From contig JASJQH010006900.1 of assembly GCA_040143965.1 (NCBI GenBank), positions 1-46,079 of the forward strand: a stretch of 46,079 nucleotides of DNA, written 5' to 3'. Position numbers and translations under genes: made by a program. Within the stretch, counting starts at the first letter, position 1; each line of letters opens with the position of its first letter. Of this stretch, positions 1,246 through 41,722 are shown piece by piece. The stretch comes from Basidiobolus ranarum (Eukaryota). The notes below the pieces were generated by a model. That model saw only the letters and a list, made by a program, of their open reading frames with translations. It ran no database searches and was not told the DNA's origin.

Positions 1246-1309
1246 AAAAAAAAATTTCCTCCGAAGAGGTGTCCAATCAATATTTACGTGACATCCTTGT
1301 GCAGGGGCC

Positions 1310-1340
<31 letters not shown>

Positions 1341-1366
1341 TTCAAGTGTCAGAGGTTCCGAAGAAC
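1246..1366 (-). ncRNA. U6: U6 spliceosomal snRNA (variant 3' end)
   Basis: Minus strand reads GTTCTTCGGAAC...AAAATTGGAACGATACAGAGAAGATTAGCATGGCCCCTGCACAAGGATG, which contains the ACAGAGA box, the AGC triad and the ISL. It has a 5' UUCG hairpin and a T9 Pol III terminator at 1246-1254. The 5' end is at 1366 or 1371. Confidence 0.95.
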
Positions 1367-1390
1367 TTGACGAAGGGTCAATGGTAAAGG

Positions 1391-1803: not shown

Positions 1804-2323
1804 CTAGTTTTGTCCATTAAGCAAATTTTGATCCCACAAGTACAAACCAAGTCCTTCTCCTCCGACACGGTTCAATTGGGTAAGCATGTCTGAAATCTTC
1901 TTGATGGCTTCGACTTGTTCAGTGAGGTAGTGTCCTTCCAAGAAATCGCACATTTGAGGGTCACCTTGCTCAGCAGAGATGTTGTGCAAGTTCAATAATG
2001 ACTTGTTGACATCTTTCTCAAGTTGAAGGGTGGCTTCGATGGCATTCTTGGCTGAGTCCCACTCGATGTTGGGGACGGGGATGGGTTGGAATGAAACACG
2101 ACCACCACGTTGGTTGACGTAATCAATCAACTTCTGTGCGTGTTCATACTCCTCTTGGGCACTGTCACGGAAGAACTTGGTCAATCCTGGAAGGGCGACA
2201 TTATCACGACCAAAGTAAGCGGCAAGGGAGGTGTAAGTGTATGAAGCAGTTAACTCCATGTTGATTTGGTTGTTAAATACCTTCCTCGGAGGCAATGGAG
2301 AAGTTTTGTTTAGCAAGAGACAT
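1804..2323 (-). CDS. Ferritin (eukaryotic H-type), with a one-base frame disruption after codon 16
   Basis: ATG at 2323 gives MSLAKQNFSIASEEGI and then a TAA at 2275-2273. The +1 frame continues NNQINMELTASYTY...EEYEHAQKLIDYVNQRGG...LQLEKDVNKSLL...DFLEGHYLTEQVEAIK, with the ferroxidase residues present. Intronless. Confidence 0.9.
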
Positions 2324-4914
2324 ATTGATGATGATATGAAGTTGAATGGATGACTTGGTTCAGGGCATCTGCTTGCCTTTATATTGGTTTTTCAAAATTG
2401 ATATATAGACTATTACGTGTGAATGTGGCAGAGTGACATTAGTAATGAATAGTAGAAATTGTTTGTTGTATCGCTCTAGTAACCTATATATGGTAGATCA
2501 GTAGATAAACCTGGAATTATATCAAGTAGCCCACTTGAAGATTTATACAATCATTACCATATATAACATAGCAACCGTTCTTAGATGGATGAAAGTAAAG
2601 ACCCACCCATGGACTAATGTTTCGTGTAACAACAGACGTTGTAATATTGCGGGGCACCAGTGGATGAAGAAAATTTTTATTACTGGGCATACATTTGCTC
2701 ATAATACAAATAGAGGGATTTAATATCAAAATAAGTTGATAATGGCCTATATTCTCGAAAAGGCAGATCAATAGATAAGCGAGAAATTTGTGTAGCAGTA
2801 TTTTTGGAATAAGAATCCCCACAGATTCTCAGGGAAGTTCCGGAGTGCAATTTTGTGGGGCTCCGGACTGATTGACTACTTTCGTTCCTAAAAACAGTCA
2901 GTACCTCGATACAGTAATCGCAAACAATTAAATACGTATTCCATATTGCGGGCCTTTTAACATGGACCCTGTAATTTGAAAATCATTGGAAGCAAAATCA
3001 ACACCTAGCCAACGTTTCTCTACCATTTCTGAACAATTGATAATTAGTTCTACTTGATAGATTTATCTTCAAGTGAATGGAAGAATGTTGATAGATGGTA
3101 TATTTCGTTGGGTCATACTTTTTAGCTACGTTATAGTTATTAGAGTATTGACTTTATGGTCATCAATCCAAAGATGTACATTGCTACTTCATGGTATTCA
3201 AATGCTGTATATACCTATATTTAGAATTATACTTCACTAATTACATTTGAGATGTCAGTGAGTTCTGTGTCATCTGAAGAGTTCATTTCCCACTGCATAC
3301 TAGTTTTTCATTATACATCAAATAGTACATATATCTCAAGAGGTTAGGTCACTGAATATCATTGTTAATAGTGACCATTCATGTCAGCTTTGTGCTGAGA
3401 GATTATAAGTTGGTGTAAGGGCTCTGTAATTAAATAAACCTGAAATAAACGTGATTAAGCAGTGTCCAAGGATAAATATGCATATTGATTGATGCCAAGG
3501 TGATTTAGTACACAACCAATGATGGTGGATATTGGTTTATGGCTAAGTCTTATAACATGCATTATAAAAAGGTAGGAAGTATAAGAGTAGGAGGTATATA
3601 GCGAGGATTCAGCAGAATGAGCGGATAATTCATTTGATATTTTCACCGGAATTACTGTGTCGAAAGTAGCGAAATATTGTTAATTTCAACTGAAACTCAA
3701 GACTGGCGGTTTAAGGGGTGTCATCTAGTTATTGTGGCTGGATCGTGCGAATCAAGCAGACGGGCCATCGGTAGTTGATTCTTGTTATTCAGTGTCCAAC
3801 ATAGTTGCTATACCACTCTAGCTTGCATATCTTCAACAACCCTAACGGTAGGTTTGTACTTTTGCATTTCCAATCATCCAAGTGTTTCGAAAATGCTCAT
3901 TTAAATCAAATGACTTTTCAGGGGGTGAAGTGAAACATATTATGGCTTGTATTAAACTCGAGTTATACAACCATGAAGACACTATTATGAAGACACTGTT
4001 ATATATAGCGTTAGGCAGAAATGATCATATATAGTGTGAAGTATAATTATATATTGCGAATCGAAAAGTTGGATGGATTTGACTCACTTATTCAGATATA
4101 TGAATACAAGCCTAAGCACGTGGTTTAACACTTGATACATAAGCCAAGGCACGTGGAATGTAAACTCACCCCGTAGAGCTCATTATATTAAAAGTGGAAT
4201 TATTAGATATATCCTCAACTCAACACTGAAGTGACTGTGTAACAATATAGAGCGAAACGGATACAGGGGATGTGAATTTATGGCTGATTCACCAAAATGT
4301 TACACTAGTTGACCATTTCAACCCTACCTATTTAGAATAATCAAACCTTGATGTGGCTGAGCTGATGTACAAGATAGTCCCTTAAATACACATCCATTCC
4401 GTTACCTAACATTTACAGTCAAATTGAGCAGGCCAGAGTTACTAAAGGCTGTTGGAAGTAGTGAGATTGTCGACAGATCTAGCATAATGAATCAGGGATA
4501 GCTAGTGGTTTGAAAATAGATTCATTTCAAGCTACTTGTTTTTCTCTGGAACTCCTATTATTTTGACCGTGATTAGAAAGATTTCCTACCAAAAGCAACA
4601 CTAGTTTTCATGGTAGCAGTCTTCTCCCTTTTATCCTTCCACTCTAGCCATATTTTGCATTTATGTTTAGTTTGATTGGGTTGCATCAGATATCCAATTG
4701 GTTCTGTTAGAGGATTGACTATAGTAAAGTCAAATAAAAACTGATCATGCAAGCTCGGTGCCGTATTCGGTTCAAATACTCAATTCTAAGTTTTTGTTAA
4801 TTCCCATTCTCTTTGAAGTTAACCATCGTTCAAGTATTGACATTATCACTCGTAACACTGCTTTGAATATCCATAGAGAGCACCCTTACTTGTTCCCGTT
4901 CTTACTACCTAACC

Positions 4915-5478
4915 ATGAATTTCATCACCAACCACATACTTCAGTACAGAAAGCGGAACTCTCCCCAGAGCGTGGTTTCATCTTACGCAGAGGTTAAACC
5001 CTCCAGAGCGATGGTTATGACCTGCCCCATCACAGATACAGATACAGAGGATTCACCGACCTCATCAACTCAGGAGGAGACGATCTTAGACATCCTTGGA
5101 GAGGAACGCGTTGAGAGAATCGTAGAGAGATTCTACCACTACAATCTTACAGACAAAAACACCAGGGCGTTCTTCCAAGGAATCAATGTGGAACGTTTGC
5201 AACGGATGCAAACCAGATTTCTTGTTCATCTCTTAGGGGGGAAAGCTATCAATACGCGAAAGATGAGAGCTGCGCACAAACGTTTGTTGGATCTTAATGA
5301 TAGACACTTTGATGCTGTTTTGAGTAATTTGAGAAAGGCTGTGAAAGATATGGGTATCAGTCGAGAGCTAGCACTGAAAATCATGGCAGCTGCGGAGACC
5401 ACTAGAGATGATGTTTTGGGTAGGACACCATTGCCCAAAAGGCAGCCATCAGACGATCCGGATTTTGATTTAGTCTAA
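4915..5478 (+). CDS. Group I (HbN-like) truncated 2/2 haemoglobin with an N-terminal extension
   Basis: Motifs LG...V..FY (B10 Tyr), FF.GIN..RL...Q..FL...LGG, MRAAH (proximal His) and HFDAV are typical of trHb group I. Intronless. Confidence 0.9.
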   Translation: MNFITNHILQYRKRNSPQSVVSSYAEVKPSRAMVMTCPITDTDTEDSPTSSTQEETILDILGEERVERIVERFYHYNLTDKNTRAFFQGINVERLQRMQTRFLVHLLGGKAINTRKMRAAHKRLLDLNDRHFDAVLSNLRKAVKDMGISRELALKIMAAAETTRDDVLGRTPLPKRQPSDDPDFDLV

Positions 5479-6902: not shown

Positions 6903-7955
6903 TCACGACTTTCTTTCTAGTGATGGGCGGCACTCATCCTCTTGTGTATTGTAGAATAAATTAGGCGAAGAGTTGGTTGATGCAGAGTTGGGATTCGTAG
7001 ACGAATGCAGCCATGTGTCCTCTTCAAGCAACCATTTGAAATCAAATCCGGTAGTATCAGGCATCGTAACAGGTGGTAAGGGAGTGTACTCTTCTCCAAC
7101 TATGTTTGAAAATTCGTTCACCCCCATCCCTTCCACACCGAATCCCTTTCTCGATAAATTCGAGCCATTAACGTTGCTAGCGGTCTCGTAGCTAGAATAG
7201 TAAGGGGAGGACTTGTTCAAGGTTGATACTGGAAAATATGGGTTCATGAGGTCATGGGGTCCTGTAGGTGGGATGAAATACGATTTCATAGTTGGGTCCA
7301 TCATTTCGCCACAATTCTGTCGTTTCAGTGGTGAGCCTTCGATTGAACCTTCCAGCTCTAAAGCAGGGGATTGTTTACGCTTACTCTTGGTTCTGTTGGG
7401 ACTATACTTGTAATCAGGGTACTTTTGCTGGTGGTCTATTTTGATCTTTTCAGCCATCCATTGATACTTTCGTTTCTCCTCAACTGAGATATTCTTCCAC
7501 ATTTTTCCAATGATCCGAGATACTTCCATGTTGGTGATACCAGCATTGGAAGCGAAAATCTCGGATTGTTTATCACGACGAAACAGGAAAAAGCAATTGG
7601 CAGGTCGTGGGATTTTGACCTTCTTGGTTTCTGATGGGATCTCTTCGGTCTCCTGTTGTTCGGAGTGGACTGAGGAGGTATCGAAGCTGGTCTCCGATCC
7701 AGGTGTCACGAAATGTTGTGCTTGTGGTGTGTTGATCATGTTTGAATAGTTGGCATAGAATGGATCGTGAGGGTGAGGCTGTTGAGGATGGTAATAAACA
7801 TCTTGAACTGAATAGGGGTTTGGATACATCCCAAAATGGATGTTATCTGGCAAGGAAGGATGGTATGACATGGCTGGGACGTGTGATGGGTGAGGCTGAG
7901 TTGTCAGGTTTTTGGGTGCGTAATCGTTGGCTGTGTATACTTGTTGAGTCTTCAT
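6903..7955 (-). CDS. MATA/SOX-type HMG-box transcription factor (HMG-1)
   Basis: 350-aa intronless ORF containing KIPRPANCFFLFRRDKQ...ITNMEVSRIIGKMWKNISVEEKRKYQWMAEKIKIDHQQKYPDYKYSP followed by a basic tail. TATA-like element at ~8080. Confidence 0.93.
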   Translation of the reverse strand: MKTQQVYTANDYAPKNLTTQPHPSHVPAMSYHPSLPDNIHFGMYPNPYSVQDVYYHPQQPHPHDPFYANYSNMINTPQAQHFVTPGSETSFDTSSVHSEQQETEEIPSETKKVKIPRPANCFFLFRRDKQSEIFASNAGITNMEVSRIIGKMWKNISVEEKRKYQWMAEKIKIDHQQKYPDYKYSPNRTKSKRKQSPALELEGSIEGSPLKRQNCGEMMDPTMKSYFIPPTGPHDLMNPYFPVSTLNKSSPYYSSYETASNVNGSNLSRKGFGVEGMGVNEFSNIVGEEYTPLPPVTMPDTTGFDFKWLLEEDTWLHSSTNPNSASTNSSPNLFYNTQEDECRPSLERKS

Positions 7956-10028
7956 GAGTAATGTATAAGCAGCAGTAATATCTAAAGGTAAAGGCTTGGG
8001 TATATAAAGGCAGCTCTAAGTCTAATAGAAAGAGAAGAAAGAATGAGGATGTGTTTACTGCAATCTGACTTCTCGTAGCTTTTATAAAATCGCACAGTAC
8101 AGCCTTGGGTCGGAGAATAGATCAGAATTCGTCCGTACGCAACACGATCAACCTGATCATTTCGCGCGGTTTTGGATATTTTTTACACTAGGAAGTTGTG
8201 GCATACCTTCGGAAGTGGTATTGTTGAGCGCGCTCTACTTACTATTTGGAGTTCGCTTTATTTCCCGATGCTGTAGGTCGCTTAGACCGGCCAGACTTGT
8301 GTGCATTAGATTAGCTCTTAATTTCTGATGGGCATTGTGTATAATAAACGTGGCCAATGAAGCTTCCCAAAATCCACCGCATTTACCGCGATTATAGCGC
8401 TAAATACGAAAGGAGCTAGAAAAGCAAATGATTTGGGATTTCGGATTTGATCGGAGAGATCTGAATTCCGACTGTGCTTACTCTTTCAAAAACTCCAACC
8501 GTACATGAGAGAATCCCAGGCATCCTCTATTGTTTGTAGAGTGTGTAAACAGATGTCGGTGTTCCTTGGATTGGATACAATGAGTGGAGATCATACGTCT
8601 GAAATTGGATTAAAGCCATATACCTCACCAACAAATAGCCAGGTGATGCTTATGTAAGAGAATAAACTGGAATGATTGACTCCAATAGAATCATCTGTGA
8701 GACTTTTAGACCCAATTCGTCAAAAGTTGTTTACCGAAAGGTTCGGCCAGATGTTGACAGCTAAAACAGCGGATATGTTGTGAACAAATCCTACTCTGCT
8801 CGGATAAATTGCTCCACCATTGAATTTCCCACGTCGTTGGTATTCCCGATATCTTCAGAATAACTCAGACTCGCTACTGTATACTTATACCAATATGAAG
8901 CCTAAGCATTTCAAATGAGGTCAGTTCTTGGAGAGATGAATACTTGGTCACCGGCTAATAGAATGGTGAATGCGGTTAGACTGCTTCTAATCGAACGTCA
9001 TTTTGCTCGGCAACTTCGAAGAAGCATTACGTATTACGGTCATAGACTATTGCAAATTTACCAAGTTGGTGCTACCGTTTGTCCATTTCTAGATCGGTAG
9101 TCGATATTGACAGGAGCCTCACCCCACAATGATACCATGTTCTAGTCGAACACATTGAACTGACTATAAATGGGGCTTGTATTGCGCACAAAAGAGCCGC
9201 ATGTGTATTGGATACATTAATTATTGATAAATGTAGCAGTTAACCATACAACACTTATTATCAGTAACTGATTATCGCTGACGTTTCTAGAGTTACATTC
9301 AGACAAATAAAGTGTGAGAAAAAGACTTTTAGCCGTGATGAACAGCTATTTCAAGGCTAATATGCGGGGTTTTACATATTATATGGGAACTCCACGCATG
9401 TCTGTCCAATGCCATGAAACCAGCAAAGAGCTTCTTGGGCTGGTTAGTCTTGGAGTGTAGCTGGGTTTTTCGACTATAAGCAATAACATAAACATTGATT
9501 TCCTCGTGGACACTGGCGGCAGTTACTCTTTGTACAATATGCTAACATGTGTTATGATCCTGGTTTGGAAGTTATGAGTAAGAACCTTTCATATATATAT
9601 TTTTAGAAACTTGAATGAAAATTGCGAATGAGTTGCACTCCATGGTTTCTGACAATATCCGGTTTAATCCTAATGGGGCGGCTTCGTTGACGGATTAAAC
9701 TAGCGCGAAATATGTGCACAACGAAATTGGTCAAAATCCAATTTTACATGGAAGGGCGATCGCAACAGCCTATCAAACTTTGCTGTAATCAATTCATTTC
9801 ATACATTATAGTATGTGTCAGCTTGTGACAACTTTCCACTGAAAAGTTCCATTTCTGTAAAATACCCCGCTCTCTATTGGCTCACTGGCCTTACCTCCAC
9901 TAAATAATGTGATGCTCAACCAGTTTACCATATTTATATTTACATATATATATCATTAGGGAGCGCTAATCTCTCTTCCCTACCACATCTTCTCAAATTC
10001 CCTTGACTACAAGCAATCCATTCACAGC

Positions 10029-12075
<2,047 letters not shown>

Positions 12076-12764
12076 ATGTATTATTGAACCTTTACATTTG
12101 ATACGGTTCCTATTTGCATCAATCATTTACCATTTATTCCTTTCCTCTCCTCTCCTTCCATTTCACTACAATCAAACAAAGTCACATCTCCAATCGGCAT
12201 CGAACTCCATTATACAATAATAAAAGTGTTTATCCACAAACCGTGGGAAGAACACATTTACTAGTAAATTGACACATCCGATGATTTACATATTTGTAAC
12301 CCCACTAAAATGAGGTAACTTAAAATTCCTAAAAGTAGTAAGCAATACTAATAACACCATACAAACTCATTTTGAGGTAACCTATAATAACCAGAATGCG
12401 CAGCTGCATAGAACAGTTTAAGTTTTCAAGGAGATAATCTTGGCTGTATGGTAAAATCTTTTGGCCAAACATATACTTAGTAATGTTGCTCCTTTGAAAA
12501 TTTGCATTTCGAAAGTATGAAGGTTAATTGTCTACCATCACACTTACATATTAATTAAAATCACGTATAAAACAGAACTATAAGGATAAGGATGTTCAAA
12601 GTATGGATTTATTTTCCTACAAAGAATGAAGGGCGAGTGAAGCTTTCTTAAAGATCGAGCTGTTTCAAAATGAAAGCAAGAATTATCAAAAAAAGGATGG
12701 ATGGTGATGGGGGACTGGGTGAATGAGATGTAGTCTACTCAACGCAGGTGAGGCGAAGAGTTAT

Positions 12765-15700
12765 TTATTCTTCATCTGGATAGTATTTTTTAAATTCGTT
12801 CACCTTCCTTCTTGCATTGTTCATTTCTTTCTCCAGTTTAAGGATAATCACTTGTTGTTCCATCTCTCGAAGCTTATGGTCTTGTAAGGATAATTTCGAT
12901 AAATCCAAGTCCTTCTCTTCCTTTTTACGTGCTGTAAATGCCTTGACAGCCTTAGCAACATCTCGGGACGCATCTGTCACTGCACGTGAAGCCAATTCTA
13001 ACTTTTCTTGTGTTTTGGAATACATGTTGGCTTTTACACGAGCTGCCGCTACTAATTGGGCAGTGGCAGTTGCAACATCGTTCGAGGCATCAATAAGTTG
13101 CTCTAAAGTATGAGTGCCATGGATTACTCCGTTTGCAACTTCAACAAGAGTATTGGTTGCTGAAGAGACACCTCTGGCTGCCGATACAAGACCCTCAGTC
13201 CAACGGTTATTCTTTTTATAATAAGCGTTTTTAGACAAAGAGCCACGTCCTTGATCGACAATTTCTTGTTGAGAAGCATGAGCACAACGAACTAAATTGA
13301 CAATAGCTTGAGTCATAGCTTTAGCAGTATCAAGTATAGCATTGTGAATTTGATAATCTGCAGTCGATACTTCAGACCTCTTTGGTTCATTTCGAAGATC
13401 GGAAAGTTTCACAGTAGCCTCTTCTACAGTACGAGCAGCATTCAACATTTCCCGCTCGACTAGAGCTGCCAAATCCTCTTGACCGGCAGTATGGGAATCC
13501 TTAGGTAAAAGTGATTCGATCAACTGAATAAGTCTATTTAAAGCGACCTGGATGTTATGATTGCCTCTGGCTATATCGTCTGGACGCTTGGCCTCGGGAG
13601 AAGCCAGAATATTGAAAGATAACATATCGGTGAAAAATTTCTCTGCTGCTTCGGCTGAAAACTGTCCAGAACGGATTATCTCTTCAACCTGATCATCTTC
13701 ATCAGCAAGTCGGGTTACACCTTTAACATGGTTGAGAAGCTGGGATACAGCTTCAGCAAAGGCTGTGGCCGTATTGATGACTGATATTTGATCTTCGAAA
13801 TCGGTGAGATATTGCAAGTAACCGATAGCAAATTCACTAGATGTAATGTATGCACGCTCCACCATCGAGAGGACGTATTGTGCAGTAGCGGATTGATTTC
13901 CTTGGCTAGCAGGCGAAGTGAGCTCAAAAGCAGCATCATTCAATTTTTTGATACAACTGCGAAACACCGAATCTGGAAGTGGAATACTGGACTTTAGTTC
14001 CTATACATCGAAAATCACACATTCATGCAAATGTCACAAACCCAAGATGCTATGAAGCTTGGCAGACTGTTCATCGTGAAGTGACCCAACGAGTTTCTGA
14101 AGCTCAGACTCGGTAGCATAGGTTGTCTATAGGACATGTTGCACGTTAGTTTGATACACCATCATTGGTGTTATGAATAGCTGAACTTACATCTTGTAGT
14201 GAAGCTAAAGCCATCAAACTCTGGTCCATACCAGCTTGTAGGATAGCAATTTCCTCTTCTTTAGCCTAAAACCATCGCTTAGTCATCAATAGATTTGAAG
14301 AGGACTGTTTCACATTACTTACTGATGTCATTTTATCTAGCTCATTCTTGACGATTTCCCAATCTTTAGCGATACCTTCTTCAGCTTCACGCTTGTCCTA
14401 ATGCGAGCGAAATGTTATCATCGGCAATCAAGTACAAACCATATGAAATCTGATACTAACACGAAGAACTTCTTCCAATTCATTTTGTTCTTGTTCGAAC
14501 CTTTTACGCATATCATACAATTCTCCTCCAGTCGACTAAAGCAAACGAAATTCTAGACCTCTTCATACATAACAATGACGTGCTGGAATGCTTTACCTCC
14601 ATCAACTTCTCAATCTTAGCCTTGGTTTCTTCCAACTCACGTTTCATTCGTTCCAATTCTCCAGAATCAGACTGATACAAACTGTTTAGTACGTATTACT
14701 AGATTTCATCCAATCTTTCTTTACTCACCCCACGCAAACGTTCTAGCTCGTCCTTGGCCCGATCGCGCTCACGCATCATGTCCATCAATTCGGTGTTCTT
14801 TGCCTATAGATTAAAGTTCAAAATGCCTGCATAAATCGCATGAATGCAATCAAATAAGACTTGTTCCGGATTTACCTTCAACTCCGATTGCAGACGATCA
14901 AATTTGTAAGTGGCTTCAGTAGCGGCGCTAGCTTTAAGATTCACTAGCTTGACTTTGCCTAAAAGCTCAAGGTGCTCTTGACGAAGTTTTGCATAGAATT
15001 TGGCAAGGGCTTCATACTTGGCTTTCCATTCAGCGATTTCATCTAATTTGCTTTCCGCCGTTAATCAGATGTCTGAAGTTGGAGAAATAAGTTGGGGATT
15101 ACCTTGAAGTTGCTTAATCAAAGCATCCAAATCGCCGTCACTTCGTTGTTGCGAAAGACCGATTCTCGCCAGTTCATTTTCTAAAGCTTTAACACGCTAA
15201 ATACTCGTCATTAGTGATGTTGTAAACACTCCATAATGCTCTATGACCCTTCCTTTTACCTGATCGTACTGTGACATAAGCGTCATATCACGCTCTTGTT
15301 GATTACGATAGTTCATAATTTCACGCTCAAGCTCACTATATCGGTTCTGGGCCTGCTCTTGTAATTGCCTTTCTCGTAGGAGACGTTGTTGCTCTTCCTG
15401 TTCCCTTTGCAGGGCAAGTAGTCTCTCTTGCTCCTCTCGAGGATCGACCTCTGGTACTTGAGGTGGTGGTGTAACTTGACGAGGAGGTAAACGAGGAGCA
15501 GAACTAGGACTTTGAGCAAGGAAATTTGGAGGATCCTAAAAATATGAGGACATTGTGTCAAACAGGATTCACTACAAGAATCAAAACCAAAACCCTACTT
15601 GTGGTAACTTGGGGATAGTGATCAAACTGGTAAGATACTTAATAGTAGAGCATTCATGATAGAATTGTCTCAAGGAGTAATGCTGAGCATTGAAGCGAGA

Positions 15701-16726
15701 ACGTAGTGGTTCAAGAGGTTCATGTGATTCGATGCCTGTTATCATAATATTGAAATAATTTAGGAACATTGTATATATATATATCTACAGAAATATAACT
15801 AATAGAGGGTTTGAATAAGTCACTTACGTCGATGCATAGCCATCAACATCCTGGTGGCGAACTCATAAATACCATAGCTTTCTTCTACTAAAGGTACCAA
15901 AGCCGAAATTCGACACTCGTTATCCGAAATTGGACGGAAAGTTCGAAAGATAAGTTTCTGGAACCTATCAATTCGATCTTGCAAGTTCATAAGATCGGCA
16001 ATAGTCTCATAACTATCGAATATGAAGATATTAAGTAAGGCAGAAACACTTTGAATCCAGGTCATTTGCAAAGCGGCAAATGTTACGAACGAAAGAACTT
16101 ACCCTTCATTAGGATCATCTACACCTTTTACACTCACGTAATCCTCATAGTCGAAATTTCCATTGAACTCCGGATGTAAACGATGATAATCAAGTTTTGC
16201 AATAATGAAATCAACATATGCCCGGATAAGAACACCATATCCTTTGAAACTGTCTTGGGCAAACGATTGGCTCAACACTTCCAGAAACCCAAGCTCATTC
16301 ATGGCTTCACGTAGAGCCTAAGTTGAAGAATGTTCGTACTTCTTTTATTGTTTCTTTAAGTCGATTCCTTTAAATATACGTTTAGTGCTTACCACTGGGT
16401 GACCACCGCGAAGAACCTTGTGGATGGTGATTAGAGCTTTGAAGCATTGAACCTCATCAGCTAACAATGGTTGGACTTTCAAACCCATCCAAAAAGATTG
16501 GGAACTCTTTGAATCCCAGGTGTACACAATGCAACCTTAACAAGAACATGTATCAGTTATTACAAATGATAGCAAAAAATAAAACTGAAAGAGACTTGGT
16601 GCGTTATTACTTACTTCTCACATGCTTTTGTTTAGGTGCAGTCTCATCGGCGTTCACCGCCTTTTTGATATTCATTGCGAGCTCATGCTCGACTTTATCT
16701 CTATCTGCATGACGCGTTGTAGCCAT
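12765..16726 (-). CDS. SLA2: Sla2/End4/HIP1-like endocytic adaptor (ANTH, coiled coil, I/LWEQ talin-like domain), multi-exon
   Basis: The N-terminus has ETAPKQKHVR.CIVYTWD and ECRISALVPLVEESYGIY. The C-terminus has YYKKNNRWTEGLVSAA, TAQLVAAARVKA and EMEQQVIILKLEKEM. Confidence 0.95.
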
Positions 16727-16950
16727 CTTGTATTATGACAGAGAGTGCTAACGAACTATATCTAATCAATAATATTCCTCGGTTCGACGAATATATCGTT
16801 CGAGCTGTATATTCCAAATGAACCAATGAAATTCATTCAAATAATCTTCATTCATTTCATAGCGTTTCGATCACCTGACTTGATAATTCTTACGGTCACA
16901 ATAATCATTTAGAAAAGACAAAACCCTACTACTATATCGCCTACGTTTGT

Positions 16951-17172
16951 ATGAGTGCGACTCAAGTAAAGTTTGATAAAGATTGTACACAATTAGAAAA
17001 AGCTTTTAACTCATGCTTTGAAACGTGGTATTCTGAAGATTTTCTTAAAGGTAATACTGAACCTAATCCACAATGCGAAAAGATCTTTCAAGAATTTATT
17101 CAGTGTGCCAGCCTGCGTTCCATATGCTCTTTACTGGTATCTGATGCTAGGTGCTCCAACGATGAAAAGTAA
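16951..17172 (+). CDS. MDM35: Mdm35/TRIAP1-family twin-Cys mitochondrial intermembrane-space protein
   Basis: C-x9-C...C-x9-C spacing and the motif CF..WYSE.FLKG. Head-to-head with SLA2, with start codons ~225 bp apart. Confidence 0.8.
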   Translation: MSATQVKFDKDCTQLEKAFNSCFETWYSEDFLKGNTEPNPQCEKIFQEFIQCASLRSICSLLVSDARCSNDEK

Positions 17173-17893
17173 TCTCTTCATATGATTACAAGTGCAATTA
17201 TTCGTCTCGTAGTTATATTTTGTTTCTCTGCGGCCAAGTAATAAACCATTTTCCTAACTCACATACTGAATCGCTTTCTTCATATATACAACAACTCAAG
17301 ACTATGACCTGAACTCGAGGCAATTCTAGCTACCAAGTCGAAAGTAAATTACTCTGACTAAAACTTGCTTAGTATACCTTGAGTGATTAACATAAAATAT
17401 GATGAAAACACCCGATTCATTCATCTCCGTTTCATTCACTAAATAAACAATCCTAAGGCAAAATATTCTCGATCTATATATATTGGAATACCAAGATTTA
17501 ATTTTATCAATTTGATTCTCGGCTTTTATTGAGTCATATGTTAGCTTAGATCGTAATTGATTGGTTCAGGATTTTTTTTGGCCTTCTATAAGCAGACAGC
17601 CCACTATTCAGATACAGAGGATTCATGCAATCTTAGGCCCTGGCACTTTTAATTGGTGAAGCGGCGATCAAAAGAATCTACATTGAATGAATCCTACCAT
17701 TTATAGACCCATTGAGTAGTATAAAAAGTCCACCAGTATCTGTGGGAACGCAACAGATTTTCCTCAGTCCCATCATTAAACACTTGTTGATATTAAATAA
17801 AACTATCCCTTGCGAGTGATCTCTAACTCAGTTGTTTTCATTTTACTACTCGAAGATACTCTTTTACCTTCATAAAAGTCTATCTCAGTAATT

Positions 17894-18697
17894 ATGAGTG
17901 GTATTCCTCCCATCAGTTGCTTCTTTGGTGTTCCGGAATATACTGTGAACTACCCACAGAATCAACCACCAGTGGTCTCTCGAACTCTGGAAGATTCAGT
18001 ATCGTTAGATTTTACTTTGGAAGAATCCCCGAATTTTTTCAGCAATTTCAACTCTAATGACAGTCATATTCACGGGACAGCTGGCTCTATACCTGAAGAG
18101 GGTGAATTCTTCTTCGTCCCTGATGGCTATGTTCCAGTATTGATGATGGACTCTTTAGCTTCAGTGGTAGAGTATAATTTGCCCCCTGAAGCGATTCCAT
18201 TAAACCATCCAGTTTGGGTGCCTCATGATTATCCACTCCCATCCAGTCTTTCAAAGAAGATATGCCCACTAACAGGTCCTATCTCAACCGTGCCAAGAGT
18301 GCCTCCAAAAACCATCAGAAAAGAGAAGAAAACTCCTCGTCCAACCAATGCTTTTATTCTATTTCGTCGAGAAAATCATGGACGAATCTTTCAACAGAAT
18401 CCACACCTCTCCAACAACGATGTGTCCAAGACTTTGGGTAAGGAGTGGAAAGAGCTACCGGAGAATCAAAAAGAGATATATCGTCAAAAAGCTCGCAGTC
18501 TACAACAAGAGCATCAAGCAAAATATCCAGATTACAAATTTACCCCTCAACAGAACCGCCGTAAGCGCACCAAACCACCTGGAGGAGGCGAGAATGACTC
18601 AATCAATGGACAGCTGCCGGGCGTTGTATCTCATCTGCCAGATACCAATCATAACCCCTTCCACATTATTTATATTCCGCAAGTTACCAACACTTAG
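17894..18697 (+). CDS. MATA/SOX-type HMG-box transcription factor (HMG-2)
   Basis: 267-aa intronless ORF containing KTPRPTNAFILFRRENH...LSNNDVSKTLGKEWKELPENQKEIYRQKARSLQQEHQAKYPDYKFTP. TATAAAA at ~17720. Confidence 0.93.
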   Translation: MSGIPPISCFFGVPEYTVNYPQNQPPVVSRTLEDSVSLDFTLEESPNFFSNFNSNDSHIHGTAGSIPEEGEFFFVPDGYVPVLMMDSLASVVEYNLPPEAIPLNHPVWVPHDYPLPSSLSKKICPLTGPISTVPRVPPKTIRKEKKTPRPTNAFILFRRENHGRIFQQNPHLSNNDVSKTLGKEWKELPENQKEIYRQKARSLQQEHQAKYPDYKFTPQQNRRKRTKPPGGGENDSINGQLPGVVSHLPDTNHNPFHIIYIPQVTNT

Positions 18698-19444
18698 GAG
18701 AAACATTTGTCTATGAGCTAGAACTTATCACATACTTAGCCAATGATATTAATGCTGAACTTGTCAGAACTTTCAATGATTTTGTTGTCAGCAATAATGA
18801 GCCTAATTCCCCACGAGTTACTTACTCAGCATTCTATTTCATATTTACCTTATTTCTTAACCAGAATGTATAGAAGCTTTTATTTTATTCTTATCCCGTC
18901 TCTTCCCATACCCATACCTTTGGCGATAATCTTGTACATGTATCTTTGAAGGGAAGTAACTGAAGTAAATATTCCTTAATATTGATCAAAATCTAGAATG
19001 CAACCAAATGAAGTATCATTTGCAGAGTTTATTCGAACGCTGCAGTTTATTCGTTACACGGCGCATTCACAACCCTTATTATGATTGTTCGAATATAAGC
19101 ACCCAGAAATAAACTCACCCCAACGAATCAACATTAGTATTCTGTGTGGAACCCAATCTGACAGTTCAAATATATTACTCATAATGAGATCAATAGAAGT
19201 ACCGCCCAGCCTAACTCTACTAATCCGGTAACATTGAAGCAATTCCACATTTTCCCGCTCATCGGTTCCACATCGGGTAAATCACTTCAGAAAGTGTACC
19301 ATTGGTTAAATTACTCCAAGCCAACTGGATCTGATGATACTGGAGGTCTACCAATCAACCATTACGTCCACAGGTGGAGTCCAAAGCTGCCAAACCACCG
19401 ACTGTAAACACCCAAAGACGACACCAGTTTAATCATTTATTTTG

Positions 19445-19490
19445 TCAAGCAGCGTAATCATCAAGCAGCGTAATCATCAAGCAGCGTAAT
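19445..19490. repeat. Tandem repeat, about 3 copies of TCAAGCAGCGTAATCA (16 bp)
   Basis: Read directly: two exact copies and a 14-nt third copy. Confidence 0.9.
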
Positions 19491-19782
19491 TATTTAACAC
19501 TGAGAATTTGATGGTGTCTTTTTCCTTCAACATCTCCATCAGTGTGGGAAAAGGGGTGACTTGTTTTTGGGAATTCTTGTGAAACCTTCCATTTCGAAGA
19601 CTGGCAATGGTATATATTACTCCACTAAAAATGTTGACTCATTTAGATGAGCCTCGGCCATCTATCATCGCTACATATGTTCTTGACCGTTATCACGATA
19701 AGAGGTCATTTATAAGATAATAGCAGAGTAAGATCAAACGAGTGTGTCCAGATAAGGGTAAGGGATGTAGTTGAATGGGATA

Positions 19783-19816
19783 ATCAGTGCTAACAAAAGA
19801 TCAGTGCTAACAAAAG
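19783..19816. repeat. Tandem duplication of ATCAGTGCTAACAAAAG (17 bp x2)
   Basis: Read directly in the sequence. Confidence 0.85.
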
Positions 19817-20045
19817 AAAGATCAACAATAGTGAACAGATGTGCGACAGGACTAGGGTTAGGGGAACTCATACAAAAGAAATAATTAAAGTACATCATAC
19901 GCCAGGATGAACTCACAAATAAAGAATATAGCAATTTTTGGACAATATATGCAGGAATCATTAAGGTGATCGTGAAATTATTGCAATATAGTAATGGTGG
20001 TTGTACGACTGTTTTCTAGTATTAGACCATACTGAAACAAACCAC

Positions 20046-20528
20046 TTAGCGGAATAAGGCTCTTTCTTCGTTGTCAATATTTTGCCAAATGCTCATGATA
20101 ATGCGTGAAGCCTCTTCGCCGTTAATATTACACTTGACCAACTCTTCCATCTTGGAGGAGTAGAAGTTGGAGTAAGCCTCCTGCATACCTTCTAATTCCA
20201 ATGCAGGTGAAGGAACCGACATAGTAACATGCTTAAAACTCTTGATTGGAGCAGGTACATGCGGTACTTGATTGCGACTTTCCGAAGGTAAATAAGCAGT
20301 TAAAGAAGTGGGAAGATTATTCCCGCCTTCATTCTTAAACTCAGACAACTTCTCCTGACTAACCAACAGAGGGCGATAACCACGAGGAATGTAGTATATT
20401 TTCCCCTCTCGACATTCGGAGAGAAGTGTGTTGATGTGTGAAGAGGGTCGAGAAATATTTAGATTGATGTCCTTCTTCATGGGTTGAGTTGCTTGGTTAG
20501 ATCTCTCCAAAGCAATTTGAGCATTCAT
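20046..20528 (-). CDS. Degenerate, C-terminally truncated HMG-box-like protein (HMG-3), probable paralogue of HMG-2
   Basis: The C-terminal AYSNFYSSKMEELVKCNINGEEASRIIMSIWQNIDNEERALFR aligns by eye to HMG helices 1-3 (compare EVSRIIGKMWKNISVEEKRKY in HMG-1). It shares EGKIYYIPRGYRPLLV with EGEFFFVPDGYVPVLM of HMG-2. Confidence 0.65.
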   Translation of the reverse strand: MNAQIALERSNQATQPMKKDINLNISRPSSHINTLLSECREGKIYYIPRGYRPLLVSQEKLSEFKNEGGNNLPTSLTAYLPSESRNQVPHVPAPIKSFKHVTMSVPSPALELEGMQEAYSNFYSSKMEELVKCNINGEEASRIIMSIWQNIDNEERALFR

Positions 20529-21316: not shown

Positions 21317-22948
21317 TTAGTTGGCTTCAGGTGATCGTCTAGGCGATACAGATCGACGATTGTTGGGAGACATACTACGACGAGGAGATAAGTCACGCTT
21401 AGGGGAACGACTAGGGCGAGGAGACATATCGCGTTGAGGAGAACGGCTACGACGAGGGGACATATCGCGTCTAGGAGAGCGACTACGACGAGGGGACAAT
21501 TCACGGCTACCGCGAGGTGACATATCACGTGGAGCAGACATACGAGGTGATGCGCTACGCTCACCAGAACGTGATCTTCTACGAGAGCTACTACGAGGTT
21601 TGGGAGATCTACTTAAAGAGCGACTATATCTAGAGCGTGAGCGAGAATTGGAACGGGAGCGAGAACGATATCTTCTTGGAGATCTACTACGTCTAGGTGA
21701 GCGAGATCTAGAAGAGGGTCTTCCCCGAGCGCCACCTGGACCTCCAGCGCCACCTGCACCTCCACCCCTTCAAAGTGAACTCCAGTTAGACTTCTTGTAA
21801 AATAAAGCAATAGATAATAATTGATAGGTTATGAACATGTGTTCAAAATAAACCATGACAACTCGCTAATAACTATTGTTAAAAAAAGATTAACTTACCG
21901 GCAATCTCTAGCTTTATGGCCAGTTTCACCGCAAGAGCTAACAAAAAAATATCAGTATCTACCATATGCATACAATTATACTAAAGTTGGTCGTACAAGC
22001 AACGGTTTTCTTCATATCTATACATGCAAATAGTTAGTTTTGAATGTTAAAAGATAATAACGCAATGTGTTGATAAGTTACCTTCTAGAGCGAACACCTC
22101 TGTATATGAAATAAGAAGAATGAAAAGTTAGAATATATCGTCACGAGGAAAGGTAGTGAAATTCTATTCTGACCTGCCAGGGGGATCGGGACAATCTCTA
22201 GCCCTGTTGAGTTAGAGTTTTCAATTTAGTATTATGAAGAAAGTAATGACTTGATATTTGGCTTGGACAGATATAAGCCAAGATTTAAGTCTACTAACCA
22301 ATGACCTACGACAATAATAAGGTTATGTTACTATGCAAACAAAAAAACCCACCAACATTTCAACTACATACCACCATTTCCACAGTTGAAGCAGCGCTCC
22401 CCGCCTTTCTCTTTCTCTTCAGTACGACGACCACCTTTGGCAGCCTCAACGATAATTCTTTCGCCTTCAAGCTTATAACCATCCAAAGCTCTCACAGCAT
22501 CATCGGCATCTACAAATCGAATAAGTCTAAGTTAAAAAAAAGAAATGGTATTTGATTATTGCCCTAAAATCAAATAGCAACCTCTGTCATCGTCGAATTC
22601 GACGAACGCAAAAGAGCTCTAATATGTAAAGTTAGTGCTAACTCACGGGTAAAATTAAATCTTTGACTATATAGCGCTAAATAAATACCTTCATATCAAT
22701 TCGTCTAACTCTTCCATATTTAGAGAACATGTCGTCTAGATCACGTTCGCGGACGTAACGCGATAAGTGGCCTGGCAATGTGAACAATAAAAGTAAGAGA
22801 TCAGCATGTCTGGTAGATCAATGATAAATAGTTTGATAGAAAATGGGATGAAATGGGATAAAAGAGAGGTAAAACTACCGATCTACGCACCAACATAAAC
22901 TCTAGTGTTGCCACGACGGCGATCATCTCTCGAATCGTAGTTTGACAT
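21317..22948 (-). CDS. SR splicing factor: RRM, two CCHC zinc knuckles and an RS/SP-rich tail (about 9 exons)
   Basis: Spliced translation TRVYVGHLSRYVRERDLDDMFSKYG...FAFVEFDDDRDADDAVRALDG...CFNCGNGGHWARDC...CFSCGETGHKARDC...RSRSPRR repeats. Confidence 0.88.
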
Positions 22949-23996: not shown

Positions 23997-25707
23997 ATGG
24001 TTGATTCTACGGCTAGCACAACTGAGACTCCGAAGTATGGAACGACCCGCGGAAATTTTGCTCAAGCTAGAGATCCTAGCCTGAAGTACTCGGATGATAT
24101 TGATCCCACACTCTCTTTCTTTTGTTAGTATTGGTTTAACTAATGAAATATTTTTGGCCCGCCACTAACGAGTATCTTGTTTATTTCCGCAGATTCTTCG
24201 AAAACCATTAGTCTTTTGATTCTAATGCTTTTTGTTCTTTTATACGTGGCTTTGGGTTCCAACTCGCAAGATACCGTCGGGAATATTAAAATGTAAACTT
24301 TTTTTGAGCTTAGGAGTCAATTACATTTCTAACATTCTATTTATTAGGGGTATTCTTGCTGCGGCATTTGTTTTCATTTTCATTGGACTAGTACAATTCG
24401 GAGATGGTGCCTTCATTCGGCCTCATCCTGCTATTTGGAGAATTGTTCTCGCAGCAAGTGTTCTTTATGAGATGTTCTTAGTTTTTATCTTATTCCAGGT
24501 AAATTCGATTTTGAATGCAATTTGCTCTTGATACAAAATTAACGGATAGGTATATACATTATATGTAATAGAATGCTACAGACGCCCGCTTGTTATTCAA
24601 GTACATTGACCCCGCTCTTGGTATCCCACTTCCTGACAGATCTTACGCCGAAAATTGCGACTTCACTGTATCAAATGTTTGGGTAAGATGAATGAGTAAT
24701 TTCGATATGTTTAAATAGTACTAACAAAGGTACATATTGATTTGGCTATTAGGATTCTATGGACGCTTTCGTTCTAGCTCATTCCATCGGTTGGTTTTGT
24801 AAAGCGATTATTCTACGTGACTACTGGTTTTGCTGGATTATTTCTATAATGTTCGAGTTTATGGAGTACTCGTTACAACACCAACTTGCTAATTTTGCTG
24901 AATGTTGGTGGGATCATGTGAGTAATTGAATATATTAGACATTTCACACACCATATACTAAACTGATTGCATCGATTTACAGTGGATTCTGGACGTTCTA
25001 GTCTGTAACTGGCTTGGTACATACGTCGGTATGAAGTTCTGCGAATATTTCTCGATGAGAGTAAGTTGGCATTTATTACCTCAACCGAAACTTCAGCCTA
25101 ATACTCACCTATATTGTTAAAATATAGCATTATTCTTGGAGAGGTATCAAGCAAATTCCCGATTATCGCGGAAAAGTTAAAAGAACTGTTCAACAGTTTA
25201 CTCCACATAGCTGGACAACTTTCCATTGGGGAGCTACTGAAAGTTTCAAAAACTATGTTGCTGTTATTTTACTATTGGCAGCGGTTTTGATGTGTGAATT
25301 GAATGCATTCTACCTCAAAACTCTATTGTGGTTGCCTCCGGAGCACTACCTCAACATCTCCCGCCTCTTACTATTTTTCCTCATCGCCACTCCTGCTGTT
25401 AGAGAAGTATACCAATTTCTCATGGACAAGTAAGTCATCATGATCATTCGTTTGGTTTGCAGTTGCATGTCTAATTGTCGGTTAAATTAGGAACTGTAAA
25501 CGTATTGGTGCTCAAGCCTGGCTTGCGATCGCATGTATCATGACTGAAGCTCTCATCATTCTCAAGTTTGGTCGGAACGAATTCCCCAACCCTGCGCCAT
25601 CTCACATCAAGATATTCTGGGTTGTTCTACTTAGCTTAGTTGCCATATACCCTGTCTGGCAATTCTTGATCAAACCTAGATTAGAAAAGGTTGAAAAGAA
25701 AGACTGA
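23997..25707 (+). CDS. Phosphatidylserine synthase, base-exchange (PTDSS/PSS) type, multi-exon
   Basis: Motifs [28 protein letters not shown] and [34 protein letters not shown]. Multiple hydrophobic segments. C-terminus ends KKD. Confidence 0.92.
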
Positions 25708-32944: not shown

Positions 32945-33988
32945 TTAGGCGCTTGGCCTACTCTCTTCGATTTTCAATGTAAAATCATTACTTTCTAAAT
33001 TCTTCATCTGAGTATCAACTGATTGATAGGTACTCGGTTTCTTAGAGTCATCTAGACCATACATGTAACTGGAGTAAATGACTAGAGAGGATCCCACAAG
33101 GAAAAGAAAGGTAATATGGAAATCAAACAAGTAAACTGAGAACAGACTAGATACAATGATAGAGATACTAGTGGCGAATCCCTTGAGAATGTTATCTGCG
33201 TACTTGACTACCATAGCAACGATGATACCTCCACAAGCTTGACAAGCGATAGCCATGTAGGTGTATTTGTCATAACCATACCAGAAGCCGTTGGACCTGA
33301 CACTTTCTCCATCCATCCATAAGACACCCAGGAAAATGGCTGGGAACAAGGAGAAAAAGGACAATTGAATGTTACGTACCCAGAGAGAGGCACGAGTTCC
33401 CTTGAGGATTTTTTCAAAGTACACACCAGCCAAACCAGATATGACACAGGCACACACTACAGTGAACAAACCAAGAAGCCTTTGGTTACGTTTCTCTTCA
33501 TCGCTTGAGGCTTCCGTTCGAAATTGAACCAATATCACACCGATGGTAAGAAGAACCAAAGATAGCCATTTCTTGGGGGACAAAGTTCTACGAAGTATGA
33601 TAACAGTACAGAGAGCGGTGGTAAGAATTTTGAGTTGATAAGTAACTTGGAAAGTTGCAGCATCTAAAAGAGTAACCGCAACGTATTGCAGGTTATTTTG
33701 CAGAGTATATAATCCAGCAGGAATCATCAGTTTCCAAGCATCTCGGCTGAAAACTTCGGAAAATATCTCTCGAGGTTGAATATATCCTTTGAGTTTTAGT
33801 TCATCACGGGCGTGCATAAAGAGACAAATAATAAGTTTGGTAAATTCGGATAGCGCGACAGCTGTTGAAGTGGCATAACGTGGTTCGCTATATCTAGATT
33901 GTCTCATGACTAGAACCAGAGCACTGTTCTGTAAGACCAGAATGAGTAAACTCAAATACTTCATCGGGATTTTTTCTAGCGATGACAT
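32945..33988 (-). CDS. Nucleotide-sugar transporter, SLC35A family (UDP-galactose/UDP-GlcNAc-like)
   Basis: KYLSLLILVLQNS, STAVALSEFTKL, PAGLYTLQNNLQY, FQVTYQLKILTTA, AGVYFEKILK and VVKYADNILKGFATS. Confidence 0.93.
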   Translation of the reverse strand: MSSLEKIPMKYLSLLILVLQNSALVLVMRQSRYSEPRYATSTAVALSEFTKLIICLFMHARDELKLKGYIQPREIFSEVFSRDAWKLMIPAGLYTLQNNLQYVAVTLLDAATFQVTYQLKILTTALCTVIILRRTLSPKKWLSLVLLTIGVILVQFRTEASSDEEKRNQRLLGLFTVVCACVISGLAGVYFEKILKGTRASLWVRNIQLSFFSLFPAIFLGVLWMDGESVRSNGFWYGYDKYTYMAIACQACGGIIVAMVVKYADNILKGFATSISIIVSSLFSVYLFDFHITFLFLVGSSLVIYSSYMYGLDDSKKPSTYQSVDTQMKNLESNDFTLKIEESRPSA

Positions 33989-41028: not shown

Positions 41029-41722
41029 TTTCCTTCACGCTTGACGGTTTAATATGAAAGGGATTAGCCGAGGAAAAGTGTTGTTCAATATGCGTGCACT
41101 ATGCGAGATGCTGGTAATGAGAGAAAGGAGAACGAGGGCTTAGGTTGAGAAATCGAAGATATCGTAATGAAGACGGGAGGTAAATGCATATTTATTGAAG
41201 AAAAAAGTGGCAAAATACCTTGTGCCTGCGGAAACTCAATGATTAATAATAATATGGTGTGATCTCCTGTTTATTAGTCAATAAATGTTTAGCTTAACCT
41301 TCCCAAGACTATGACATCAAAGCCCCTGCTTAACATATATTTATATAGTCTCCATAGTCCGATCATTCGTACACGTGTTTTTCCGCTGTTGACAAGGTTT
41401 AGCTTAGCTTCTTACCAAGACTGATTAGTAAGATTGAGTGATGCTGCGGATGAAGCGATTTCATATTGATTAAAGATAAATCTGATAATGATTGAATGTC
41501 TTAAAATAATTCTTAATTCCATTTTTTTTCATGGATAGCGTGAGGACCGCATTAGGGATTACGGAGGATTATTGCCCATAGTGACTCTTCCGACTAAGCT
41601 AAGGAGTTTCGGAGGGGAGTCGGGGAGTTTCTCCGGAAATTCCGTGAAGATCAATTCGACCGATTATATAAAAGAGCATTTAGCACCCAAGATTGAAACA
41701 TTCATTATCTCCTATATTAGCA

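Follow-up and report, generated by a model that had tools for sequence, protein, structure and literature searches.

An HMG-box gene cluster beside SLA2 in Basidiobolus ranarum, a candidate sex locus

Known sex loci and the layout of the B. ranarum cluster

The Mucorales sex locus, as described in PMC3116813 and PMC10386755, carries SexP/SexM between a triose-phosphate transporter (TPT) and an RNA helicase, and the ascomycete MAT locus, in the account of PMC3116813, places a MAT1-1 alpha-box gene or a MAT1-2 HMG gene between APN2 and SLA2. Rhizophagus (Glomeromycotina), which lies outside Dikarya, has been reported to hold several paralogous mating-type-like HMG genes dispersed over different contigs (PMC3834313). 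Within Basidiobolus, species are either selfing or outcrossing according to PMC7466969. A description of sex determination in Zoopagomycota or in Basidiobolus itself was not found in the literature searched.

We analysed a 46,079-nucleotide stretch, contig JASJQH010006900.1 (hereafter the window), of B. ranarum, a fungus of the frog gut, in which two HMG-box genes, HMG-1 and HMG-2, flank the genes for NADP-dependent isocitrate dehydrogenase (NADP-IDH), SLA2 and MDM35, with about 10 kb separating the two HMG genes. HMG-1 (6903..7955, minus strand) is an intronless ORF of 350 aa with a complete HMG box at aa 115-183 and flanks that have no family match. The multi-exon NADP-IDH gene lies between HMG-1 and SLA2 on the plus strand (approximately 10029..12075); its exon at 10782-11135 resembles NADP-IDH chains of both the cytosolic and the mitochondrial type (E 5e-20), its N-terminal exon was read over 21 residues, and its last exon ends at 12075. 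SLA2 (12765..16726, minus strand) is a multi-exon gene for a 998-aa protein with ANTH and I/LWEQ regions (I_LWEQ E 2.6e-47; three ANTH exons). It is 100% identical to the protein record P0126, named sla2 [Basidiobolus ranarum], which tblastn mapped to 16726..12768 of the window, and this identity bears out the earlier placement of the organism among fungi of zygomycete grade. The first exon of MDM35/UPF0203, a small CHCH-type protein, was recognized at 16879..17169 on the plus strand (PF05254, E 3.9e-12), with a start codon near 16951 and in divergent orientation to SLA2. HMG-2 (17894..18697, plus strand), an intronless ORF of 267 aa with a complete HMG box at aa 147-215 and family-specific motifs toward both termini, lies beyond MDM35 at a distance of about 1.2 kb from SLA2. 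The original observation that HMG genes bracket IDH-SLA2-MDM35 is upheld; all three genes between them were identified by family, chain or tblastn matches. Farther right is a third frame, ORF3 (20046..20528, minus strand, 160 aa).

The cluster is bordered on the left by a bacterial-like (truncated) globin gene (4915..5478, plus strand; PF01152, E 5.3e-11) and on the right by an SR-type splicing factor (21317..22817, minus strand), recognized from an RS-rich ORF at 21317-21769 and an RRM exon at 22680-22817 (RRM_1, E 1.5e-4). The splicing factor gene contains 36-nt coding repeats. DNA repeats that might join the three HMG genes or mark the borders of the block were limited to short, weak matches.

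To compare this setting with the described loci, we scanned three sets for protein families: 5 ORFs; 54 stop-to-stop frames, out of 91 that reach 75 aa or more, which partly coincide with the first set; and 102 short ORFs (38-74 aa, 431 in total), all located at 2.4-24.3 kb. The ORFs scanned, which represent part of all frames, yielded neither TPT (PF03151) nor a DEAD/helicase family, in line with the earlier statement that both Mucoralean flanking genes are missing from the window. The closest member of the DMT clan encodes a nucleotide-sugar transporter (PF04142) and lies at a distance of 14 kb, at 32948-33988. The likeness to the Mucorales locus of PMC3116813 and PMC10386755 lies in class and setting, with a zygomycete-grade host and single-box, sequence-specific HMG candidates with divergent flanks. 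Unlike that locus, the B. ranarum locus has neither of the two flanking genes among the ORFs scanned, and it carries two HMG genes on one haplotype with three housekeeping genes between them.

With the ascomycete MAT locus of PMC3116813 our cluster has in common an HMG gene near SLA2. However, APN2/endonuclease and alpha-box families (PF04769, MATalpha_HMGbox) were not found among the ORFs scanned, MDM35 separates SLA2 from HMG-2, IDH separates SLA2 from HMG-1, and the Basidiobolus lineage lies outside Dikarya. In the chytrids covered by PMC6572847, moreover, the scaffolds that bear SLA2 or APN2 carry no HMG gene; common descent with ascomycete MAT would therefore need many losses, and the proposal that the SLA2-HMG linkage is older than Dikarya is weakened.

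HMG boxes of HMG-1 and HMG-2, and the probable relic ORF3

Both intact genes encode boxes that span the whole PF00505 HMG_box profile (1-69/69), HMG-1 at aa 115-183 with 75.8 bits (E 3.6e-21) and HMG-2 at aa 147-215 with 85.3 bits (E 4e-24), each above the gathering cut-off of 25.4 bits. The two proteins are 40% identical (39/97) and alignable in the box only, which agrees with the original description of two intact, clearly different HMG genes. Each ORF is identical throughout to a stored protein record (P0121 in the case of HMG-2), and this fits intronless gene models.

We compared the boxes with proteins of solved structure. Nearly all of the best PDB matches are SRY and SOX proteins (E 1e-15 to 1e-11), the exceptions being an SRY/HMGB1 chimera in the top row and yeast Abf2, an HMGB-type box (E 5.4e-15 against HMG-2 and 2.4e-11 against HMG-1). 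For HMG-1 the best solved relatives are the SRY/HMGB1 chimera, SOX-17/18 and SRY, at E 5e-19 to 5e-12, compared with E 8.6e-9 for the first plain HMGB1 construct; for HMG-2 they are SRY/SOX, at E 9e-23 to 3e-15. Against the two boxes, the first plain HMGB1/2/3 constructs score at about 1e-8 to 1e-9. By sequence, both boxes thus fall in the sequence-specific class (SOX/SRY/TCF and fungal MATA_HMG) and not in the HMGB/UBF class. The assignment to MATA_HMG proper is provisional, drawing as it does on the SRY/SOX matches, on Atlas leads and on the RPxNAF(I/F)L(F/Y)R motif, which we take to be a sign of MATA_HMG. In the Atlas, HMG-2 has as its second-nearest cluster one that bears the name 'Mating type protein (Fragment)' (score 0.92); we treat this as a lead only. 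An AF2 model of HMG-2 from a 5-row alignment has three helices at 152-210 with pLDDT 82-91, and the remainder lies below 50.

The single close relative of HMG-1 among the matches listed is P0246, a 111-aa fragment that is 84% identical and differs at 1 box residue; as in HMG-2 and its paralogues, the box is strongly conserved and the flanks have diverged. HMG-2 ranks about 78th among the 150 listed matches of HMG-1. In a FastTree phylogeny of 150 HMG boxes (150 of 153 sequences yielded a box), the HMG-2 family received a support of 1.0 and HMG-1 with P0246 a support of 0.989, with 13 nodes on the path between them. This topology indicates that HMG-1 and HMG-2 are old paralogues in anciently separated clades. 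A search of all six frames of the window with our own 4-sequence box profile yielded no HMG boxes beyond these two.

ORF3 is a different matter. At a threshold of E<=0.01 it matches none of the Pfam HMG families, and against the 4-sequence profile it reaches only E 1.4. Against a 150-sequence box profile it scored 10.0 bits, confined to profile positions 17-56, a score reached by 0 of 1000 shuffled controls (maximum 9.3). Pairwise, an N-terminal motif is common to ORF3 and HMG-2 (12/29, E 2e-4) and a helix-2 stretch is common to ORF3 and HMG-1 (15/41, E 8e-5). The N-terminal strand and helix 3 of the box are absent from ORF3, and a six-frame search of the window gave no helix-3 remnant downstream of it. 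Its in-frame codon score is 0.194; HMG-1 scores 0.176 and HMG-2 0.093, and four control frames, either antisense or lacking a family match, range from -0.079 to 0.115. The score suggests only weakly that ORF3 is or was coding, because open frames without stops score high anyway. Of the third HMG-like gene proposed earlier, the ORF and a weak HMG resemblance therefore stand, whereas a recognisable HMG box and a Pfam HMG match do not. Probably, ORF3 belongs to the HMG-2 family and has decayed or been truncated.

HMG-2 paralogues and a second SLA2 copy

The same B. ranarum assembly encodes at least three paralogues of HMG-2, namely P0122, P0123 and P0124 (68%, 58% and 54% identical to HMG-2, respectively), so that the family has at least four members. 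P0123 and P0124 are 67% identical to each other, and at the protein level the divergence within the family forms a 2x2 pattern of two pairs. Short motifs outside the box, N-terminal as well as C-terminal, are conserved across the family. As in Rhizophagus, several paralogous HMG genes thus lie on different contigs. The family seen in B. ranarum is small (at least four HMG-2 members, the ORF3 relic, and HMG-1 with one close relative), in contrast to the expanded MATA-HMG gene counts of Rhizophagus.

P0122 and a second SLA2 protein, P0128, are both reported on one contig of 9,931 bp; P0128 breaks off toward its C-terminus, as would a gene that runs off the end of a contig. It is therefore probable that the SLA2-HMG-2 block is present twice in the assembly. 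The SLA2 copy of the window (A) and the second copy (B) are 87.1% identical, and their identities to SLA2 of B. meristosporus are 88.7% (A) and 86.3% (B). Because the two copies are about as diverged from each other as from the B. meristosporus protein, the duplication must be old. We read the doubled block as the result of gene or genome duplication, a process already reported for B. ranarum, for which PMC3281927 estimates the haploid genome at 350 Mb and reports that the fungus is at least diploid, with differences in gene copy.

For the contigs of P0123 (45,150 bp) and P0124 (15,779 bp), no SLA2 was found among the 240 SLA2-like proteins listed (120+120). It had been argued beforehand that many dispersed HMG genes would make proximity to SLA2 a matter of chance. 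This applies in part: two of the four HMG-2 members are on contigs without detected SLA2, and the other two share contigs with SLA2, one of them probably. No HMG-2 homologue of B. meristosporus was found among the matches listed from a database that does contain the SLA2 of that species (on a 47,045-bp scaffold), and the idea that relatives share the HMG-SLA2 linkage loses weight accordingly.

Developmental regulators or sex determinants

We favor, at slightly better than even odds (roughly 0.55), the reading that HMG-1 and HMG-2 are developmental regulators in an unremarkable cluster, which was copied in a genome rich in duplications and adjoins SLA2 by coincidence. HMG-1, HMG-2 and the presumably decayed ORF3 would simply sit among the housekeeping genes NADP-IDH, SLA2 and MDM35, and the proximity of SLA2 would most likely be a lineage-specific coincidence rather than inherited ascomycete MAT synteny. 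The two intact genes are predicted to encode sequence-specific transcription factors of the SRY, SOX and fungal mating-type kind. Judging from the family, each protein would bind and bend DNA through its three-helix box and would recruit partners through its long, low-confidence flanks; the two short conserved motifs outside the HMG-2 family box may be an interaction module. A role of HMG-1 and HMG-2 in zygospore development is plausible. Several points nevertheless speak against an ordinary regulator cluster. Two anciently diverged HMG genes 10 kb apart are unlike random placement in a genome so large, SLA2 is the classic neighbour of ascomycete MAT in the account of PMC3116813, and its adjacency to HMG-2 appears to have outlasted a duplication as old as the split of B. 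ranarum and B. meristosporus. In addition, sex in the related Mucoromycota is determined by HMG proteins as reported in PMC10386755, and a selfing Basidiobolus species would be expected to hold both determinants on one haplotype.

These same points lend some credit to the tentative and less likely alternative that the cluster serves a self-fertile Basidiobolus as its sex (mating-type) locus, in which HMG-1 and HMG-2 would be opposite determinants on one haplotype that jointly switch on zygospore development, with an SLA2 link either ancient or convergent. The analogy, equally tentative, would be to SexP/SexM of Mucorales or to MAT1-1/MAT1-2 of homothallic ascomycetes. Two intact boxes of the sequence-specific class but of different clades within 10 kb, SLA2 about 1.2 kb from HMG-2, a linkage probably repeated in the second copy, boxes conserved between copies while their flanks diverge, the Atlas lead and the existence of selfing species in the genus are all consistent with it, and a competing published locus was not found in the literature. 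However, the HMG-2 family is spread over at least four contigs with half of its four known members lacking a detected SLA2, the B. meristosporus homologue is absent from the matches listed, neither the Mucoralean flanks nor the ascomycete partners were found among the ORFs scanned, and SLA2 was singled out post hoc from about six neighbours. We regard as unlikely the fuller proposal of a sex locus of the whole Basidiobolus lineage, with two ancient HMG determinants on one haplotype beside SLA2, a linkage that predates Dikarya or arose twice, and two SLA2-HMG-2 copies that could be old sex-linked haplotypes. Two narrower explanations also need to be weighed. HMG-2 and ORF3 alone might share a history of local duplication followed by decay, with HMG-1 a chance neighbour and no functional cluster at all. 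ORF3 indeed keeps the N-terminal motif of HMG-2 in the same order while most of its box is gone, HMG-1 and HMG-2 share nothing outside the box, and the three genes are not joined by DNA repeats; but the box remnant of ORF3 matches HMG-1 (E 8e-5) better than it does HMG-2, and chance would hardly place an HMG gene without kinship as close as 10 kb unless HMG genes were very numerous, so we consider this explanation improbable. Alternatively, what looks like a duplication might be allelism: the 9,931-bp contig and the window would then represent a single sex-linked region in a nucleus that is diploid or of higher ploidy, as old haplotypes that have diverged in the manner of idiomorphs, and suppressed recombination would account for the 13% difference even in SLA2. 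The at least diploid state reported in PMC3281927 would permit this. The divergence between the copies, with an age close to that of the species split, resembles trans-specific MAT polymorphism, and SLA2 is 87% identical between the copies, compared with only 68% for HMG-2. Flanks of transcription factors, however, normally diverge faster than SLA2, and P0123 and P0124, on contigs without detected SLA2, are equally diverged (67%), which is more in keeping with duplication across the genome than with a single special region. We therefore hold such haplotypes to be highly improbable.

The HMG cluster beside SLA2 is a reasonable candidate for the B. ranarum sex locus, and it offers a concrete, testable locus with three named genes and a defined neighbour in SLA2. 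If it is the sex locus, HMG-based sex determination would extend beyond Mucoromycota, and the age of the ascomycete SLA2-MAT linkage relative to Dikarya would be reopened. If, as we favor, its genes are ordinary regulators, the cluster is still of value as a record of an HMG family that is small and specific to this lineage, and of a duplication of the SLA2 region that took place long ago in a genome for which large-scale duplication was already suspected.

Gene content around SLA2

The SLA2 gene (12765-16726, minus strand; multi-exon, 998 aa) encodes a product that is 100% identical to a protein of equal length, named sla2 [Basidiobolus ranarum], which bears out the early-diverging, zygomycete-grade lineage proposed in the original prediction. 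In other species, its closest relative is in B. meristosporus (89%), followed by those in Entomophthora and Massospora (52%). B. meristosporus (P0127, P0129) also has a second, far more divergent SLA2-like protein of 874 aa (53-56% identity), of which no B. ranarum counterpart was present among the matches listed.

HMG-1 (6903-7955, minus strand, 350 aa) is separated by a divergent spacer of 2.1 kb from the gene for NADP-isocitrate dehydrogenase (about 10029-12075, plus strand). Beyond SLA2 follow MDM35/UPF0203 (from about 16951, plus strand), HMG-2 (17894-18697, plus strand, 267 aa), the HMG-like frame ORF3 (20046-20528, minus strand) and an SR-type splicing factor (about 21317-22817, minus strand). 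The spacers at 8.0-10.0 and 18.7-20.0 kb are without any Pfam family match, and the gene-poor one between HMG-2 and ORF3 carries perfect tandem repeats at 19445-19490 (16 nt x 2.9) and 19783-19817 (17 nt x 2.1).

Upstream lie a U6 spliceosomal RNA gene (1263-1371, minus strand; 74.7 bits, E 3e-17) and two single long ORFs, one for ferritin (1807-2391, minus strand; PF00210, E 2e-37) and one for a bacterial-like truncated globin (4915-5478, plus strand; PF01152, E 5e-11), both families being uncommon among fungi. Downstream, 24226-25430 (plus strand; PF03034, E 2e-33) encodes a phosphatidylserine synthase of the base-exchange type, which is the animal and plant type, Dikarya usually having the CDP-DAG type. 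Three adjacent intronless ORFs of ~410 aa each, at 39817-41034 (minus), 41684-42919 (plus) and 43550-44815 (plus), are paralogous genes for Ser/Thr protein kinases (Pkinase, E 2e-56 to 1.5e-58), with 52-53% identity to the first and a Ser/Lys-rich N-terminal region common to all. The contig start (33-297) carries 78-nt and 60-nt tandem repeats, with raised GC (0.45), strongly negative GC skew and overlapping long ORFs in several frames without a Pfam family.

Two complete HMG boxes and a probable remnant

Three HMG-box genes had been proposed around SLA2. This holds for HMG-1 and HMG-2, whose coordinates were exact and which contain one complete HMG box apiece, the PF00505 matches (E 3.6e-21, aa 115-183, and E 4e-24, aa 147-215, respectively) both spanning all 69 profile positions; the case for the third, ORF3, is weak, as it reached no Pfam HMG model. 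The two genes also appear to be intronless, as proposed: a stored 267-aa protein is identical to HMG-2 end to end, and ESM Atlas entries match both proteins letter for letter, which puts the uninterrupted ORFs in agreement with existing intronless gene models.

SRY and SOX domains account for nearly all of the best solved relatives of both boxes (E about 1e-15 to 1e-11), with the HMGB-type box of yeast Abf2 interleaved among them (5.4e-15 for HMG-2, 2.4e-11 for HMG-1). Because these SRY/SOX boxes outrank the first plain HMGB1/2/3 constructs (about 1e-8 to 1e-9 against both), the two boxes appear on balance to be of the sequence-specific class, and we infer that they may be MATA_HMG proper. Their closest ESM Atlas clusters, taken as leads only, are fungal HMG proteins, including for HMG-2 an Ascomycota cluster labelled 'Mating type protein (Fragment)' (0.92) and a Zoopagomycota cluster (0.90). 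With a shallow alignment, AF2 modelled the HMG-2 box alone with confidence (three helices at 152-210, pLDDT 82-91; <50 elsewhere).

HMG-1 and HMG-2 are paralogues of long standing: their 40% identity is limited to the box, and HMG-2 ranks about 78th among the 150 listed matches of HMG-1. In a FastTree phylogeny of 150 boxes, recovered from 153 input sequences, 13 nodes separate the HMG-2 family (support 1.0) from HMG-1 and P0246 (0.989). This 111-aa fragment (84% identity) was the sole close relative of HMG-1 in a search of 1.84 billion representatives, and its box differs from that of HMG-1 by one residue.

When all six frames of the window were searched with a profile of the four local boxes, HMG-1 (E 6e-48) and HMG-2 (E 9e-51) gave the only significant matches, ORF3 scoring E 1.4. 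Against the 150-box profile ORF3 reached 10.0 bits, a score that none of its 1000 shuffles attained (maximum 9.3), with a match confined to positions 17-56, the end of helix 1 plus helix 2. ORF3 lacks both helix 3 and the DNA-contact strand at the N-terminus, and no remnant was found downstream in any frame. The motif EGxxxxxPxGYxPxL occurs in ORF3 as well as in the N-terminal portion of HMG-2 (12 of 29 residues identical, E 2e-4), and the order of motif and box remnant is the same. The in-frame codon score of ORF3, 0.194, is similar to those of HMG-1 (0.176) and HMG-2 (0.093), with -0.079 to 0.115 for four family-less or antisense control frames; as a measure biased toward any open frame, it lends weak support to a coding ORF3. 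ORF3 is read as a putative decayed or truncated HMG-2 family member, presumably with no working HMG box.

HMG-2 paralogues and a second SLA2

Searching with HMG-2 at E<=1e-3 returned 5 proteins among 254 candidates, namely HMG-2 itself, three from B. ranarum and a distant JGI protein (29%). As the window itself comes from B. ranarum, these three are same-assembly paralogues (identity to HMG-2 in the search and after alignment, respectively: P0122, 68 and 68.3%; P0123, 56 and 57.6%; P0124, 52 and 54.1%). No family member was returned from B. meristosporus, whose proteome is in the database, among annotated proteins of 146-468 aa. Outside the box, HMG-2 and P0122-P0124 keep the motifs FVPxGYVPVLM (near aa 74-85) and FHIxYIP (near the C-terminus), which AF2 renders as paired beta strands at pLDDT <50.

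SLA2 likewise has a second copy in this assembly, P0128 (87% identity, C-terminus cut off). P0128 and P0122 are each reported from one 9,931-bp contig; judging from the protein records, they probably lie on the same contig, and the SLA2-HMG-2 block is therefore probably present twice. The two SLA2 copies are about as far from each other (87.1%) as from the B. meristosporus protein (88.7 and 86.3%), which makes the duplication as old as the split between the species. P0123 and P0124 come from contigs of 45,150 and 15,779 bp, from which no SLA2-like protein was reported among the 240 matches listed (120 of 259 and 120 of 584).

Pairwise identities resolve the family into two pairs, HMG-2/P0122 (68%) and P0123/P0124 (67%), with 51-58% between pairs. 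Their equal divergence is more in line with large-scale duplication than with one locus having had a history of its own. It is very improbable that both SLA2-HMG-2 copies are old sex-linked haplotypes. B. ranarum was estimated to be at least diploid, with a haploid genome of 350 Mb, and its evolution was proposed to have involved gene or genome duplication (PMC3281927).

Sex locus or ordinary regulator cluster

This region makes a reasonable sex-locus candidate. Its two HMG genes, which are ancient, distinct, intact and of the sequence-specific class, are 10 kb from each other, and HMG-2 is only 1.2 kb from SLA2, the classic neighbour of ascomycete MAT (PMC3116813); this linkage probably outlasted an old duplication. 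Both determinants side by side would be expected in a self-fertile species. B. ranarum itself is self-fertile. Basidiobolus zygospores form by selfing or outcrossing, depending on species, and HMG proteins determine sex in Mucoromycota (PMC7466969 and PMC10386755, respectively). However, half of the four known members of the HMG-2 family are on contigs without SLA2 among the 240 SLA2-like matches listed, B. meristosporus returned no family member, and the ORFs scanned, which are part of those in the window, yielded no APN2, alpha-box, TPT or helicase family. In chytrids, HMG and alpha-box genes are on scaffolds separate from SLA2 and APN2 (PMC6572847). Moreover, SLA2 was chosen post hoc among about six neighbours, with very many windows scanned.

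Taken together, the evidence favours somewhat better an ordinary HMG-box regulator cluster in a duplication-rich genome, its adjacency to SLA2 being coincidental (probability about 0.55), and a true sex locus is possible but doubtful. That there is no functional cluster at all, HMG-1 being a chance neighbour, is less likely still.

In a literature search with most subscription journals outside its scope, no mating-type locus was described for Basidiobolus or Entomophthoromycotina, nor any SLA2-HMG linkage outside Ascomycota. The HMG/SLA2 cluster offers a concrete, cheaply testable candidate locus for sex determination.
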